This document shows, piece by piece, positions 19,109 to 24,862 of a stretch of 24,923 nucleotides of DNA. Position 1 is the first letter of the stretch; each line of letters opens with the position of its first letter. The stretch spans positions 1 to 24,923 of the forward strand of contig JAFYOK010000190.1 in the NCBI GenBank assembly GCA_017560175.1, given 5' to 3'. The position numbers and the translations under genes are program-made. The notes under the pieces were generated by a model. It was not told where the DNA came from. It ran no database searches and worked only from the letters and a program-made list of their open reading frames with translations. This DNA comes from Clostridia bacterium. GTDB lineage: Bacteria; Bacillota; Clostridia; Oscillospirales; Butyricicoccaceae.

Positions 19109-20346
19109 GTATTGCGATCATTGGTGCCGGCGCGGCCGGCATGATGGCTGCCATTGCAGCTAAAGATGCAGGTGCGGGAGAAGTTTTCATCCTTGAGCGC
19201 GGTGCAAGACCCGGCTGGAAGATCAATATTACCGGCAAGGGCAGATGTAATGTTACCAACAACTGCGATGTACAGACATTGATCAAAAATGTTCCCGGCA
19301 ATGGACGTTTCCTGTATTCTGCATTTAATCATTTCAATGCAGAAGATACCATGGCTTTTTTTGAGGGACTGAGTGTTCCGCTCAAGACCGAGCGCGGTAA
19401 TCGTGTTTTCCCGGTTTCCGACAATGCCAAGGATATCAGCGGCGCGCTGATCACAGCCATCAAGCGCCGCGGCATCCGGATCATTACCGATCGTGTTACC
19501 GCTATTGAACTGGAAGATGGTGCGGTCTGCGCCGTACGCGGCGAGAAAGGCCGCTATGCCTGCAAGGCAGCCATTTTAGCCACAGGTGGCAAGTCCTATC
19601 CCCGTACAGGCTCGGACGGCAGTGGATACAAGTTGGCGCGTGAGGTTGGACACACAGTAACCAAGCTGCGCGCATCGTTGGTTCCGCTTGAAGCAAAGGG
19701 AAATATTCCGGCTCAGTTGGAGGGTCTTTCTCTTCGCAATATTGCGGTAACCTTGTCTAAGGATGGTAAGCAGATCTACAATGATTTTGGCGAAATGATC
19801 TTCACGCGAAAGGGTGTATCGGGACCGGTCATTCTGAGTTCTTCGGCGCATGTCGCCCGTGATGAACTGTTTCCCTGCAAACTGACCATTGACCTTAAAC
19901 CTGCCTTGGATGAAGTTACACTGGACAAGCGTGTTCTGCGCGATTTTGAAGAGAATCTTAACCGAGATTTTTCCAATGCGCTGAACAAGCTGCTGCCTTC
20001 CAAGATGATCCCCGTTATGGTTCAGCTCTCGGGTATTCCGGCTAATAAGAAGGTCAATGCCATCACCAAACAGGAACGCGCAGCGTTGATCCATCTGATT
20101 AAGCATTTTGAGCTGGAGATCACAGGTACTGCACCCATTGATGAGGCGATCATTACTGCGGGCGGTGTTTCCACCAAGGAGATCGACCCCAAGACCATGG
20201 CTTCCAAGTTGGTCGATGGCCTGTTTTTCGCCGGAGAAGTCATCGATGTTGATGCCTATACCGGTGGTTTCAACCTGCAGATCGCATGGTCGACAGGTGT
20301 ATGTGCCGGACAGTCGGCTGCAGAGAGGATGTATATGTATGAATAA
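19105..20346 (+). CDS. HI0933/YhiN family FAD-dependent oxidoreductase
   Basis: GAGAAG, ITGKGRCNVTN, GRVFP, ATGGKSYP, TAGGV, GEVIDVDAYTGGFNLQIAWSTG. Confidence 0.93.
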   Translation: MSIAIIGAGAAGMMAAIAAKDAGAGEVFILERGARPGWKINITGKGRCNVTNNCDVQTLIKNVPGNGRFLYSAFNHFNAEDTMAFFEGLSVPLKTERGNRVFPVSDNAKDISGALITAIKRRGIRIITDRVTAIELEDGAVCAVRGEKGRYACKAAILATGGKSYPRTGSDGSGYKLAREVGHTVTKLRASLVPLEAKGNIPAQLEGLSLRNIAVTLSKDGKQIYNDFGEMIFTRKGVSGPVILSSSAHVARDELFPCKLTIDLKPALDEVTLDKRVLRDFEENLNRDFSNALNKLLPSKMIPVMVQLSGIPANKKVNAITKQERAALIHLIKHFELEITGTAPIDEAIITAGGVSTKEIDPKTMASKLVDGLFFAGEVIDVDAYTGGFNLQIAWSTGVCAGQSAAERMYMYE

Positions 20347-21028
20347 CACAAATAAGATCAATATTGCCATTGATGGCCCTTCGGGTGCAGGCAAGAGCAC
20401 CATTGCAAAGTTGCTGGCCGCTGATTTTGGCTTTATCTATGTAGATACCGGAGCCATGTATCGCGCTATCGGTCTGTACATTCTTCGTAAAGGTCTGACA
20501 GCAGAGGACAAGCCTGCAATCATCGATTCTCTGAAGGAGATTGAGGTCAATATTGCTTATGTGGATGGTGCACAGCATATTTACCTCAACGGTGAAGATG
20601 TATCGGGTCTCATTCGTACCGAGACCGTTTCTCAGTATGCTTCCAAGGTTTCGGCGATTCCCGAAGTCCGTGCATTCCTGTTGGCTCTTCAGCGAGATCT
20701 GGCAGCTAAAAACAGCGTTATTATGGACGGCCGAGATATTGGTACAGTTATTCTGCCCGATGCAGAGGTCAAGATTTTCCTGACTGCTGCTGACACAGCA
20801 CGTGCTGAGAGACGTTATAAGGAACTCATTGAGAAGGGCCAGGACGTCACAATGGAAAGCGTATTGGAAAATATCCGTCTGCGTGATAAAAACGATTCTG
20901 AGCGTGCTGCAGCGCCACTGAAGCCTGCAGATGATGCCGTATTGGTCGACACCACCGAGCTGGATCTTCAGCAGTCGGTAGAGGCTATGAAATCTATTAT
21001 TGTGGAGAAGATGAAGCATGGTGTATAA
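20339..21028 (+). CDS. cmk: Cytidylate kinase
   Basis: IAIDGPSGAGKST, VDTGAMYR, MDGRDIGTV, RDKNDSER. Start at ATG 20339, overlapping the upstream gene end. Confidence 0.97.
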   Translation: MNNTNKINIAIDGPSGAGKSTIAKLLAADFGFIYVDTGAMYRAIGLYILRKGLTAEDKPAIIDSLKEIEVNIAYVDGAQHIYLNGEDVSGLIRTETVSQYASKVSAIPEVRAFLLALQRDLAAKNSVIMDGRDIGTVILPDAEVKIFLTAADTARAERRYKELIEKGQDVTMESVLENIRLRDKNDSERAAAPLKPADDAVLVDTTELDLQQSVEAMKSIIVEKMKHGV

Positions 21029-21599
21029 GATCATTTATTGGCTGATCTATGTTCTGGCCAAAATCGTTTATTGGTTCAGATTTGTCGGTTTGGAAAATAT
21101 TCCCCAGGGTGCTGCAATTCTTTGCGGTAACCATACTGCCAATGTAGACTCGGTTCTGGCTATTCTGGCTCTGGGCAGTACAAAGCAGCACGCCGCTATG
21201 GCTAAGGAAGAGCTTTTTAAAATTCCCGGTTTCAACTGGCTGATTCGTCAGTTGGGTGCCTATCCTGTTGCGCGCGGAAACAATGATATTGCAGCGGTTA
21301 AGTTTTCTTTGAAGGTCCTCAAAGATGGCCTCAAGCTGATTATTTTCCCCGAGGGTACTCGTGTTCGTCCCGGCCAGACAGTCGAAGCTAAAGCAGGGGC
21401 GGCAATGTTGGCTGTCAAGACAGGTGCACCTCTTGTGCCTATGCACATTACCCCCGGCAGTAAGTTTTTTGGTGCTACCGTTGTCGTCGGTGAACCTTTT
21501 TATCCGCAGGTTGAAGGCCGTGCGACAGCTGAGGACTATCAGCGTATTACTGCAGAACTGATGGAGCGTATTTGGGCATTGGATCCCAAGAAGAATTAA
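21018..21599 (+). CDS. plsC: 1-acyl-sn-glycerol-3-phosphate acyltransferase
   Basis: NHTANVD (HX4D), MAKEELF, FPEGTR. Confidence 0.92.
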   Translation: MVYKIIYWLIYVLAKIVYWFRFVGLENIPQGAAILCGNHTANVDSVLAILALGSTKQHAAMAKEELFKIPGFNWLIRQLGAYPVARGNNDIAAVKFSLKVLKDGLKLIIFPEGTRVRPGQTVEAKAGAAMLAVKTGAPLVPMHITPGSKFFGATVVVGEPFYPQVEGRATAEDYQRITAELMERIWALDPKKN

Positions 21600-21612
21600 T
21601 AGGGGAGACAAT

Positions 21613-23547
21613 ATGGCGATTACGATTGGTAAAACAGCAGGTTTCTGTTTTGGTGTAAAGCGAGCGGTAGATCTGGCTTTCCGTGAAGGCAGAGAACATC
21701 CCGAAGACAGGATTTATTCAGCCGGTCCGCTCATTCATAACAGTACGGTTCTGGCACAGCTTAAAGAGGGAAATGTTGATCTTCTGGAAGAGGGAGAAGT
21801 TCCTCCTGCAGGCAGTCGTGTCATCATCCGTGCCCATGGCCTGCCCGTGCAGGAGATCCGGCGTCTGGAAGAGGCGGGATGCATCATGATCGATGCAACT
21901 TGTCCTAAGGTTGCGCACATTCACCAGATCGTTGTTGAGGAAGCTGCCAAAGGTCGTCGCATACTGATCATCGGCCATCCGCAGCATCCCGAAGTTAAGG
22001 GCATTGCCTCTCGTTGCAGTGCACCTGTTATTGCTGAAACGGAAAAGGAAATTGATAATTTTATCAAAAACTTTAGCAAGGAAAAGATTTCCGTCGTATG
22101 TCAGACCACTTTCAGCATAAAAAAATACGAGGAGTTTGTAAATAAATTAAAAAACACTTGTAATCAGGTAGTGTTTTTTGATACAATATGTAAGGCGACT
22201 GAGTTTCGGCAGCGCGAAGCTGAAACCTGGGCGTCGCAGTCGGACGGGGTGATCGTGATCGGCGACCCGAAGAGCAGCAATTCCAATCATCTGTATGAGT
22301 TGTGCCACAGATTGTGTGCCAACACCGTTTTTATCGAAACAGCAGAACAGCTGAATACAGAGCAGTTTAGAAATTGCCGTAACATTTTCATCACAGCCGG
22401 AGCGTCCACACCCGATTCGATAATTAAGGAGGTAAACAACAACATGTCTGAAGAAATCAAAAACATCGGCGAGAGCTTCGAAGAACTTCTGGAGCAGTCT
22501 TTCAAAACTTTACATACAGGAGAAAAGGTATCTGGTATCATCACTCAGATCAACGCAACTGATATCCACGTTGACCTGGGCGTAAAGCACGCTGGCTATA
22601 TCCCCACAACAGAGCTGTCTGATGATCCCACATACAGCATTGCCGAGAACATTCACATCGGCGACGAGATCGAAGCCTACGTCATGCGCGTAAACGACGT
22701 TGAAGGCCTGGTCATGCTGTCCAAGAAGCGTCTGGACGCTGTTAAGAACTGGGAGATCCTGGAAGCAGCTTGCGAGAACAAGGAAGTTGTTGAGGGTCTG
22801 ATCGTCGACCAGAACAAGGGCGGCGTCATCGCTAACGTTAAGGGCATCCGCGTCTTCATCCCCGCAAGCCAGACAGGCCTGCCCCGTGAGGCTTCTTTCG
22901 AGTCCATGATGAAGACAACACACAAGATGCGTATCACAGAGATCAACAAGCAGAGAAGACGCGTTGTCGGCTCCATCAAGGCTCTGGCTTCCGAGGTCCG
23001 CAAGGAAGCTGCTGCTAAGGTTTGGGAGACAATCGAAGTCGGCGCTGAGTACACCGGCGTTGTCAAGTCCTTCACAAGCTACGGCGCATTCGTCGATATC
23101 GGCGGTGTTGACGGTATGGTTCACATCTCCGAGCTGTCCTGGAACCGCGTCAAGCATCCTTCCGAGGTTCTGGAAATCGGCCAGGAAGTTTCCGTCTATG
23201 TCATCGCTCTGGACGCTGAGAAGAAGAAGATTTCTCTGGGCTACAGACGTGCACAGGACAATCCCTGGACAAAGTTCGAGACAACCTACAACAAGGGTGA
23301 CGTTGCTAACGTCAAGATCGTCAAGTTCATGCCCTTCGGTGCATTTGCTGAGGTTCTGCCCGGTGTTGACGGTCTGATCCACATTTCCCAGATCTCCGCT
23401 GAGCGCCGCATCGGCAAGGCAGAGGAAGTTCTGGAGATCGGCCAGATGGTCGACGCTATGATCACAGAGATCGATAGCGAGAAGAAGAAGATCTCCCTGA
23501 GCATCAAGGCTCTGCAGGAGCCCGCTCACGAGGAAGACGCTGAGTAA
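21613..23547 (+). CDS. ispH-rpsA: Fused 4-hydroxy-3-methylbut-2-enyl diphosphate reductase / ribosomal protein S1 (IspH-RpsA)
   Basis: IspH Fe-S cysteines in GFCFGV, DATCPKV and DTICKAT, plus AGASTP; then four S1 repeats (e.g. YGAFVDIGGVDGMVHISELSW) in one uninterrupted frame. Confidence 0.97.
   Translation: MAITIGKTAGFCFGVKRAVDLAFREGREHPEDRIYSAGPLIHNSTVLAQLKEGNVDLLEEGEVPPAGSRVIIRAHGLPVQEIRRLEEAGCIMIDATCPKVAHIHQIVVEEAAKGRRILIIGHPQHPEVKGIASRCSAPVIAETEKEIDNFIKNFSKEKISVVCQTTFSIKKYEEFVNKLKNTCNQVVFFDTICKATEFRQREAETWASQSDGVIVIGDPKSSNSNHLYELCHRLCANTVFIETAEQLNTEQFRNCRNIFITAGASTPDSIIKEVNNNMSEEIKNIGESFEELLEQSFKTLHTGEKVSGIITQINATDIHVDLGVKHAGYIPTTELSDDPTYSIAENIHIGDEIEAYVMRVNDVEGLVMLSKKRLDAVKNWEILEAACENKEVVEGLIVDQNKGGVIANVKGIRVFIPASQTGLPREASFESMMKTTHKMRITEINKQRRRVVGSIKALASEVRKEAAAKVWETIEVGAEYTGVVKSFTSYGAFVDIGGVDGMVHISELSWNRVKHPSEVLEIGQEVSVYVIALDAEKKKISLGYRRAQDNPWTKFETTYNKGDVANVKIVKFMPFGAFAEVLPGVDGLIHISQISAERRIGKAEEVLEIGQMVDAMITEIDSEKKKISLSIKALQEPAHEEDAE
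22158..22187 (+). promoter_or_regulatory. Putative intragenic sigma-A promoter inside the ispH part
   Basis: TTGTAA (22158-22163), 18 bp spacer, TACAAT (22182-22187) with extended -10 TG (22179-22180); AT-rich UP-like tract at 22136-22156. Confidence 0.55.
22444..23547 (+). CDS. rpsA: Putative stand-alone ribosomal protein S1 (367 aa) from an internal in-frame start
   Basis: AAGGAGGT at 22426-22433, 10 nt A/C spacer, ATG 22444 (Met278 of the fusion); codon bias changes at this point. Confidence 0.7.
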   Translation: MSEEIKNIGESFEELLEQSFKTLHTGEKVSGIITQINATDIHVDLGVKHAGYIPTTELSDDPTYSIAENIHIGDEIEAYVMRVNDVEGLVMLSKKRLDAVKNWEILEAACENKEVVEGLIVDQNKGGVIANVKGIRVFIPASQTGLPREASFESMMKTTHKMRITEINKQRRRVVGSIKALASEVRKEAAAKVWETIEVGAEYTGVVKSFTSYGAFVDIGGVDGMVHISELSWNRVKHPSEVLEIGQEVSVYVIALDAEKKKISLGYRRAQDNPWTKFETTYNKGDVANVKIVKFMPFGAFAEVLPGVDGLIHISQISAERRIGKAEEVLEIGQMVDAMITEIDSEKKKISLSIKALQEPAHEEDAE

Positions 23548-23563
23548 TTTAGCTTGATTTCTC

Positions 23564-23594
23564 AAGTGCCGCCTGGAAACAGGCGGCACTTTTT
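23564..23594 (+). terminator. Intrinsic terminator after rpsA
   Basis: 12 bp stem AAGTGCCGCCTG/CAGGCGGCACTT, GAAA loop, T tract. Confidence 0.92.
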
Positions 23595-23627
23595 CTATGC
23601 GAAGAATATGAAAAAAGCTCCCCAAGT

Positions 23628-23678
23628 TGAACAGGTCCAGTAAAAACGGACAATAGACAAAAAGCCCCCTAATGTAGG
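23628..23678 (+). repeat. IS left inverted repeat (IRL)
   Basis: TGAACAGGTCCAGTAAAAACGGACA matches the reverse complement of the right end at 17 of 25 positions in register; shared AAAAAGCCCCC..GTAGG further in. Confidence 0.85.
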
Positions 23679-23710
23679 AAAATGAAAGTACTACATTAGG
23701 GGGTATTTGC

Positions 23711-24007
23711 ATGTCAGGAAGAAAAGGGATGAAACAATATCCGGAATGGATAAAGCAAGAAGTTATAAAGCGGATAGCCGCAGGAGAGAGTCAGCACCAA
23801 CTTAGTCGGGAGTTCGGAATCAGCAGATACAGTATCCAAAGTTGGTGTGGACTGCGACCGGAAACAAAACTGCGTCAACTTGCACCGCTGCCTAAAGGAC
23901 GCCCAAAGAGCATGAAAACAATTGAGGATTACAAAAAAGAAAACAAAAGACTTCGGATGGAAGTTTCATTAATGCAGAATTTTCTGCAATCCACAGAAAG
24001 GAAGTGA
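23711..24007 (+). CDS. IS3-family transposase OrfA (HTH)
   Basis: YPEWIKQEVIKRIAAGESQHQLSREFGISRYSIQSW HTH-like segment; ENKRLRMEV coiled-coil; RBS AGGGGG. Confidence 0.88.
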   Translation: MSGRKGMKQYPEWIKQEVIKRIAAGESQHQLSREFGISRYSIQSWCGLRPETKLRQLAPLPKGRPKSMKTIEDYKKENKRLRMEVSLMQNFLQSTERK

Positions 24008-24862
24008 GGCCACAGGCAAAGTATGCGGTTATTTATCGTCACCGAGAAGAATATCCCGGATCCGTCATGTGTCGGTTCTTTGGGGTCTCTCGAAGTGGAT
24101 ACTATGATTTTATACATAGATTAGGTCGCTTTGAAAAGGATGCCGTGCTGGCAGAAGAGATTCGTCAGTTGCAGAAAAGCAGCTATGGTACATATGGATA
24201 CCGCAGGATGCAGATGGCATTGGCATCGAAAGGTATCTATCATAACCCCAAAACTGTACTGCGAGTAATGGAAAAAGTATGATCTGCTGTCTGAAATCCG
24301 TCGCCGTAAGAGATGGGTCAATATGGGACAGCAACTGCACCGCTATGAGAACTTGCTCAACAGAGAGTTTCAAGCTGACAGACCAAACCACAAATGGGTA
24401 ACAGACATCTCCGACATACACACAAAACAAGGTGTTCTGTATTTGTCCATGATCCGCGATTTGTATGATAATAGCATTGTTGCTTATAAAACAGGTACAG
24501 AACAAACGGTAAACCTTGTTTTGGATACTATTCGGCTTGCTGTGCGCAGAGAAAAAAAGAGGGTCGCTGCAGAGTTGCAGCTCCACAGCGACCAGGGCTT
24601 TCAATATACTTCACAGGCATATTTTAAGCTAACTCAATCTTATAGGATAACACCGTCCATGTCAAGACGCGGAAACTGCTATGACAACGCCATGGCAGAG
24701 AATTTCTTTTCCATCCTCAAAACAGAGTGCATCTACAGGCACAAACCTGCTTCATTTGATGAAGCTAATGAAATAATCGACCGCTACATTTATTTCTACA
24801 ACCATGAACGCATCCAGTTAAAAACCGGAGTGGCGCCGCTTGCGCTACGCCACTCTGTTTAA
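24004..24862 (+). pseudogene. IS3-family transposase OrfB (DDE integrase core), split by one extra base
   Basis: 24004-24282 (GVSRSGYY, YGYRRM) continues in the +1 frame from 24278 (YDLLSEIRRRK) into WVTDI, HSDQGFQY and DNAMAENFFSILKTE. Confidence 0.88.

Follow-up and report, generated by a model that had tools for sequence, protein, structure and literature searches.

The ispH–rpsA gene of a Clostridia bacterium (GTDB family Butyricicoccaceae) raises the question of whether one open reading frame (ORF) gives rise to a single protein or to two. In thousands of Clostridia genomes, including those of gut commensals, industrial strains, and pathogens, IspH–S1, a textbook-like Rosetta-stone fusion, carries the annotation of a single bifunctional protein. 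The gene lies on the forward strand of contig JAFYOK010000190.1 (GenBank assembly GCA_017560175.1), of which the whole stretch of 24,923 nucleotides analyzed here is hereafter designated the window. It is an in-frame fusion forming a single 644-codon ORF (21613–23547, + strand), in which PF02401 (LYTB) at residues 3–278 is followed by four PF00575 stretches in the Pfam analysis with no frame break, and its translation matches NF000907 (bifunctional IspH/30S ribosomal protein S1) with 669.4 bits against a cutoff of 624, residues 1–642 being aligned with model positions 1–643. The translation contains the Cys motifs GFCFGV, DATCPKV, and DTICKAT, which we take to be of the kind that binds the 4Fe-4S cluster of IspH. 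As described below, the locus is very probably a nested gene, from which abundant free S1 is produced through an internal Shine–Dalgarno (SD) sequence and ATG, and a low-level IspH–S1 chimera through the upstream start.

A probable internal ribosome-binding site at the IspH–S1 junction

At the junction of the two parts (22420–22446; ATA ATT AAG GAG GTA AAC AAC AAC ATG), the codons for K-E-V at the IspH C-terminus contain the SD sequence AAGGAGGT (22426–22433, + strand; GGAGG core at 22428–22432), which is followed by the A/C-rich spacer AAACAACAAC (22434–22443, +) and by the ATG at 22444, corresponding to codon 278 of the ORF, 831 nt (277 × 3) downstream of the ORF start. The perfect SD and the in-frame start (Met278) reported in the initial annotation were thus found at the IspH/S1 junction, and the nested frame running from this ATG to the shared stop codon (22444–23547, +) encodes a 367-aa protein containing the Pfam S1 stretches, in agreement with the four-domain S1 proposed there. 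When compared with the stand-alone S1 family NF005208, the 367-aa product scored 363.9 bits, narrowly below the cutoff of 368, with its residues 10–365 aligned with positions 4–358 of the 391-position model. In the 1.58 Mb of called coding sequence of the genome (gene set derived from open-ended ORFs and an iterated codon model), the combination of AAGGAGGT with an in-frame ATG within 4–10 nt was found inside a gene only here, and this sole case coincides exactly with the domain boundary. The junction motif is far beyond chance. Another internal AAGGAGG with an in-frame ATG occurs in the same genome at codon 339 of 425 in the ORF C46:6083-7360 (+), which may represent a further nested or fused pair or may have arisen from the merging of two genes by the ORF caller.

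The strength of the internal signal was evaluated from the predicted energy of the duplex with an assumed anti-SD sequence. The internal SD gave –12.5 kcal/mol, as compared with –8.4 kcal/mol for the modest SD (GGGGAG; 21602–21607, +) of the ispH start, which is about the genome median of –9.0 kcal/mol. It ranks in the top 16% of the starts of the genome and, of the approximately 20 starts that the window contains, is one of the five strongest, the best reaching –13.4 kcal/mol. Hence, the earlier description of this site as being as strong as that of any gene in the window is roughly right, whereas the alternative wording, stronger than any, goes too far. The distance from GGAGG to ATG is 11 nt, in a genome distribution that has its mode at 7–9 nt and is clearly populated up to 12 nt. 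Predicted mRNA structure is also low at this site, which is the typical picture at genuine starts: relative to the gene mean, the stability of a 50-nt segment centered on the junction ATG is lower by about 5 kcal/mol, and the corresponding segment falls within the least-structured 10% of in-gene segments in 50 of 86 fused genes. In the same 86 genes, 50-nt segments centered 30–45 nt 5′ of the junction ATG (about 22399–22414) showed 2.4–3.3 kcal/mol of above-average structure; this structured stretch 5′ of the SD reflects either the base composition of the G-A-S-T-P codons or a hairpin that is conserved beside the SD.

Conservation of the junction was analyzed in 253 distinct ispH loci, consisting of 227 fused and 26 unfused ones; the fused genes were collected phylum-wide and share 36–93% protein identity with that of the window. 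The fused ORF is present in all eight congeners (8/8), in 13 families of the order, in most of 250 class-wide genomes, and in about 120 of 140 phylum-wide genomes. Codons at the K-E-V position contain GGAGG in 224 of the 227 fused genes, and a start codon is located exactly 11 nt after the core in 225 (ATG in 221, GTG in 2, and TTG in 2); the remaining two are one gene with an ATG at 8 nt and one (L065) lacking both the SD and the Met. The residue preceding Glu varies (K, E, R, Q, M, or G), and its codons are AAG, GAG, AGG, CAG, ATG, and GGG, the third base always being G, while AAA, GAA, AGA, and CGN before the Glu codon were never seen among the fused genes keeping GGAGG. Thus, Lys at the SD site is encoded by AAG in 164 of 164 cases and Glu by GAG in 224 of 224, against a background in the IspH halves (about 113 genes of the first sets) of 31% AAG for Lys and 36% GAG for Glu. 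The spacer is conserved in length and not in sequence or encoded residues, its codons specifying 122 different tripeptides among the 227 genes. Moreover, the occurrence of TTG (Leu) and GTG (Val) at the "Met" position is predicted by a constraint on a start codon and not by one on the protein. In a synonymous-constraint scan, which scored the excess of one codon in all 366 alignment columns in which a degenerate residue is conserved, the GAG and AAG codons of the SD ranked 2nd (z = 13.1) and 6th (z = 8.9), respectively. The alignment check proposed in the initial annotation accordingly gave NNG GAG GTN with a start 11 nt further on in about 225 of the 227 genes, in contrast to AAA and GAA in stand-alone ispH. 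A second constrained patch was detected in 89 fused genes at about 22507–22521, codons 299–303 (K-T-L-H-T-G), 60–75 nt past the internal ATG, including TTA for Leu300 (z = 11.4), ACT for Thr299, ACA for Thr302, and GGA for Gly303; it may represent an A/U-rich 5′ codon preference or an RNA element.

The unfused relatives provide natural experiments on the same signal. In five of the 26 unfused loci (L095/G053, L104–106, and L188), ispH and rpsA are two distinct genes that overlap, with the S1 start lying in another frame, about 9–10 nt past the GGAGG encoded by K-E-V. The S1 of these loci uses the K-E-V GGAGG, and the internal signal of the fused genes is therefore homologous to a bona fide rpsA ribosome-binding site (RBS). 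In another locus (L029 of genome G023), ispH has been deleted save for its last approximately 55 codons, and S1 is still preceded by GGAGGT, 9 nt, and ATG, the remnant ispH frame terminating in an ATGA overlap. At the other 21 unfused loci, where the S1 start is not nearby, GGAGG was found in only one, and the residues at the K-E-V position are written AAA GAA, AAG GAA, AAA GAG, CAA GAA, CGG GAA, and GAA GAA; the stand-alone ispH controls lack a Met at +4. In one group of Clostridium (L225, L231, and L249), an in-frame TAA separates the two genes, the S1 ATG is seven codons further on and is preceded at 9 nt by a new GGAGGG, and K-E-V is now written in the relaxed form AAA GAA, showing that the SD travels with the start codon. 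In the fused gene L065 (G126:C25), the SD in the K-E-V codons is gone (AAT GAT GTT) together with the Met, and the next Met is found nine codons on, behind AAGGTAGGTAGG; possibly, the RBS has been rebuilt in the linker.

Codon usage and transcription of the two halves

Codon usage changes abruptly at the junction. The main codon-usage axis of the genome sets the genes for PFOR, PPDK, enolase, GroEL, and acetate kinase apart from all others, and on this axis the S1 half lies at the 2.9th percentile, on the side of high expression, as against the 92.7th for the IspH half. Likewise, the codon adaptation index (CAI), calculated with the 70 most biased genes of the genome as the reference, rises from 0.234 (6.5th percentile) in the IspH (LytB) part (21613–22443, +; effective number of codons, Nc, 54.6) to 0.735 (96th percentile) in the nested rpsA frame, a step that is the second largest within any of 204 long genes. 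Of 86 fused genes, 79 likewise have a lower Nc in the S1 half than in the IspH half, the means being 41.5 and 50.1, respectively. If S1 were made entirely via the ispH start, the ribosome flux would be equal in both halves; the asymmetry in codon adaptation speaks otherwise. A 400-aa ORF antisense to the S1 half (22510–23712, – strand) was rejected as a gene, being a by-product of the strong codon bias, which avoids codons with stop complements.

A candidate sigma-A promoter was found by a promoter scan inside ispH (22158–22187, +), composed of TTGTAA (22158–22163), an 18-nt spacer, and the extended –10 element TGaTACAAT (TG at 22179–22180 and TACAAT at 22182–22187), which lies on the F-D-T-I-C codons, presumably one of the Cys motifs binding the Fe-S cluster. 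The predicted transcription start site (TSS) is near 22194, and the leader would be about 250 nt long. The codon string TTT GAT ACA ATA TGT is kept unchanged in 26 of 29 fused genes at the order level and in 36 of 64 at the class level (62/93), and it was absent from all 20 fused genes sampled in other classes as well as from all 20 unfused ones. When Asn takes the place of Asp in this motif, no such constraint is seen on the Thr and Ile codons. A –35 element matching at least four of six positions is present 16–19 nt upstream in 59 of the 62 genes, as compared with about 30% at control offsets, and the residues encoded there differ (C-K, F-E, F-D, and I-A). In the synonymous-constraint scan, the –10 codons ATA, ACA, and GAT ranked 1st, 5th, and 13th of the 366 columns, and together the SD and –10 codons account for five of the top seven scores.

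RNA data were available from four bovine gut metatranscriptomes, in which contigs 97–99% identical to the window extend from 22141, 22228, or 22279 to 23552. The region 21000–22000, with the plsC-like gene and the initial 400 nt of ispH, was devoid of contigs save for one small, low-depth piece in one run, and this uncovered stretch upstream serves as a silent control against DNA carry-over. The contig pattern is consistent with an internal promoter or with processing. On the whole, we lean toward the view that free S1 in this clade is made also from an internal promoter, for which the above element is the candidate. In C. beijerinckii, sense TSSs within ispH are listed in Capp-Switch data (PMC9045289), one at +628 and the other, present in two strains, at +775; its close relatives L225 and L249 are unfused by a TAA. 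TSS data of C. difficile were uninformative, rpsA being separate there.

Two proposed nested products and the rival explanations

Based on these results, the following scheme may be proposed. Ribosomes starting at the ispH ATG (21613) with its modest SD would meet no stop codon and produce the 644-aa IspH–S1 chimera at a low, enzyme-like level; this chimera would be the only IspH of the cell. The strong SD at 22426–22433 would direct initiation at the ATG at 22444, giving free 367-aa four-domain S1 at a high level, probably with its own mRNA transcribed from the candidate promoter (–10 at 22182–22187). Both mRNAs would end at the intrinsic terminator closing the transcription unit (23564–23591, +; a 12-bp stem with 8 G–C pairs and a T-run). 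The arrangement presumably originated from an overlapping ispH/rpsA pair, in which the SD of rpsA was located inside the last ispH codons. We infer initiation at 22444, which would yield a 41-kDa product, as well as the ratio of the two products and the use of the promoter. The suggestion in the initial annotation of two products, abundant free S1 and a low level of the fusion, is supported by conservation, codon bias, mRNA unfolding, the metatranscriptome contigs, and the unfused relatives.

Among the rival explanations, it is unlikely that the internal start is functional but minor, with the chimera as the main S1 and free S1 as a small, for example conditional, supplement. The fused frame occurs in about 90% of the sampled lineages, which suggests that the chimera is of importance, expression of the full-length protein gave a stable and active product (PMC4746011), and the SD spacing is somewhat long; yet equal flux would then be expected through two halves that stand at the 96th (S1) and the 6.5th (IspH) percentile of codon adaptation, an asymmetry recurring in 79 of 86 homologues, and the RNA contigs lie over S1 and not over the 5′ half of ispH. 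We regard it as very improbable that GGAGG acts as an SD-like pause site after the IspH domain, aiding its folding or Fe-S insertion, with the Met being incidental. Such a role would explain why the motif is exactly at the domain boundary, and pausing at anti-SD-binding sequences has been proposed in the literature, its effect being disputed. A pause site, however, needs no start codon at a fixed distance of 11 nt, which 225 of the 227 fused genes have, and it predicts neither the low structure on the ATG, nor the step in codon bias, nor the relocation of the SD with the S1 start, nor the fact that in unfused genomes S1 genuinely starts from this SD and ATG.

Two further explanations deny the motif any present function in initiation, and each has hardly any likelihood in our judgment. 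Were the motif a functionless relic of the old rpsA RBS left after a recent fusion, the separation of the fused and unfused forms by one nucleotide or one stop codon would be readily understood; but the fusion is phylum-wide at 36–56% amino acid identity with synonymous sites elsewhere saturated, and yet the GAG and NNG codons are invariant, although decay would be expected, as happened where the start moved (AAA GAA). The other assumes that K-E-V-x-x-x-M in the C-terminal helix and linker of IspH is constrained at the level of the protein and not by RNA signals. I-I-K-E-V does belong to a conserved C-terminal helix that is found also in stand-alone IspH, where, however, it is encoded with AAA, GAA, and CAA codons and followed by no Met at +4; in the fused genes, the residue before Glu changes while its third base stays G, and TTG or GTG replaces ATG.

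Several points nevertheless weigh against a nested gene with abundant free S1. The case for it consists of sequence-based evidence and RNA contigs. The spacing of 11 nt between SD and ATG exceeds the genome optimum of 7–9 nt, and the duplex energies were calculated with a typical Firmicute anti-SD, the 16S 3′ end being absent from the assembly. The related genomes are not independent, so that raw counts overstate the statistical support. The RNA consists of assembled, unstranded contigs without 5′ ends from close relatives, in which coverage gaps are weak evidence, and one contig (X1) begins 50 nt upstream of the predicted TSS. Finally, the promoter motif was found in none of the 20 fused genes of other classes and therefore is not the general solution.

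The fused and unfused states are one nucleotide in the spacer or a single stop codon apart. As an account of its origin, the earlier view of the fusion as largely a lost stop codon agrees with these differences, including the single TAA of the Clostridium group; as an account of its present state, this view probably undersells the fusion, which is in frame in about 90% of lineages. The persistence of the frame, in spite of the many single mutations that would unfuse the genes, suggests that the fusion itself is probably under selection. A tentative and less probable extension is that the in-frame state is actively kept across most Clostridia, with S1 made free from its own promoter and RBS, and IspH made only as a chimera with a dedicated function linking the isoprenoid and redox state to translation. 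The S1 tail would then place a minority of the O2- and iron-sensitive 4Fe-4S enzyme on ribosomes or mRNA, or pair it with free S1. If this extension is true, the Rosetta-stone inference that all S1 is tethered to IspH is wrong.

Relation to known systems and neighboring genes

In-frame internal initiation yielding two proteoforms from one bacterial gene is known for infB (IF2-alpha/beta), clpB, and cheA. It is also known for phage endolysins such as CTP1L (PMC4777826, PMC9430671). The ispH–rpsA gene resembles these systems in having an SD and an in-frame start inside the ORF, with a full-length and an N-terminally truncated product sharing a common C-terminus; it differs in that the short product is a complete ancestral stand-alone protein, probably the dominant one, and the long product a chimera with an unrelated metabolic enzyme, in that the short form probably has its own promoter in the upstream coding sequence, and in that the arrangement is conserved phylum-wide. 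In overlapping, translationally coupled gene pairs of the ATGA or TAATG type, the SD of the downstream gene lies in the 3′ end of the upstream one; the unfused relatives (G053, L104–106, and G023) share this layout, their homologous SD being in the K-E-V codons, whereas the upstream frame of the window lacks a stop codon and ribosomes would read on into S1. Stand-alone S1 of low-GC Gram-positive bacteria (NF005208/PRK06676; B. subtilis YpfD-type) likewise contains four S1 domains and occurs in the cmk–rpsA neighborhood, whereas the nested product has no separate ORF and scores just under the family cutoff.

Fusions of this kind have been described previously by Rao et al. (2015), who reported 447 IspH–RPS1 fusions as Rosetta-stone proteins, with no other ispH or rps1 gene in the fusion genomes (PMC4746011). 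Their description agrees with the present locus in the combination of LytB and four S1 repeats in one ORF, in anaerobic Firmicutes without a second ispH or rpsA, and differs from it in treating the product as one polypeptide, whereas here two nested genes are proposed, with free S1 as the likely major product. In this work, the only biochemical study of such a fusion, the C. thermocellum protein was expressed with an N-terminal His tag, with which an internally started product was therefore not recoverable; the S1 repeats were found dispensable for catalysis, and a ribosome-tethered Fe-S sensor was proposed (PMC4746011). The words "internal", "Shine", and "start codon" do not occur in the text of that paper, and Salah et al. 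(2009) only remark on a LytB–S1 fusion in F. nucleatum (PMC2760812). Neither an internal start nor an internal promoter in ispH–rpsA was reported in any paper retrieved by full-text search of the literature, and a 2026 review on N-terminal proteoforms in bacteria is silent on an internal start in this gene. Thus, in-frame internal initiation is known as a class, and its occurrence in a "bifunctional" IspH/S1 gene with the ancestral ribosomal protein as the short form appears to be undescribed.

If free S1 is the main product, speculation on an obligatory S1–IspH tether needs revision, annotation pipelines miss a ribosomal-protein gene across a phylum, and per-gene quantification by proteomics or ribosome profiling (Ribo-seq) blends two products of very different abundance. 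Work on clostridial IspH as a drug target should then also weigh that the enzyme is present only in the minor chimera. The locus is, in addition, a clean natural example of promoter and RBS signals that share their bases with the coding sequence of an essential enzyme and, in part, with an Fe-S ligand motif.

The genes upstream of the fusion encode a pseudouridine synthase, an RpiR regulator, an HI0933-like flavoprotein, cmk, and a PlsC-like acyltransferase, so that the locus is the classical cmk–rpsA neighborhood with the plsC-like and ispH genes in between. The source is an uncultured, Oscillospiraceae-like Clostridia metagenome-assembled genome (MAG) of ruminant gut origin, with 93% identity to a MAG from goat caecum and 64% to Intestinimonas. 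In the assembly, which is 88.7% complete, the fused gene is both the single IspH match and the only rpsA-grade S1. An S1-domain paralogue of about 300 aa (C152:2015-2938, –) was considered as the "real" S1 and rejected, with 95 bits against the NF005208 cutoff of 368; this protein is conserved and found in most relatives too. The ORF of cmk (20108–21028, +) is listed with a TTG start and an overlap of about 240 nt with the HI0933-like gene, and its cytidylate-kinase match begins at residue 86; the true start is probably much further downstream. Directly after the rpsA terminator, an IS3-family-like transposase is found in pieces, as three consecutive ORFs (HTH_28, HTH_21, and rve) at 23711–24862 (+).

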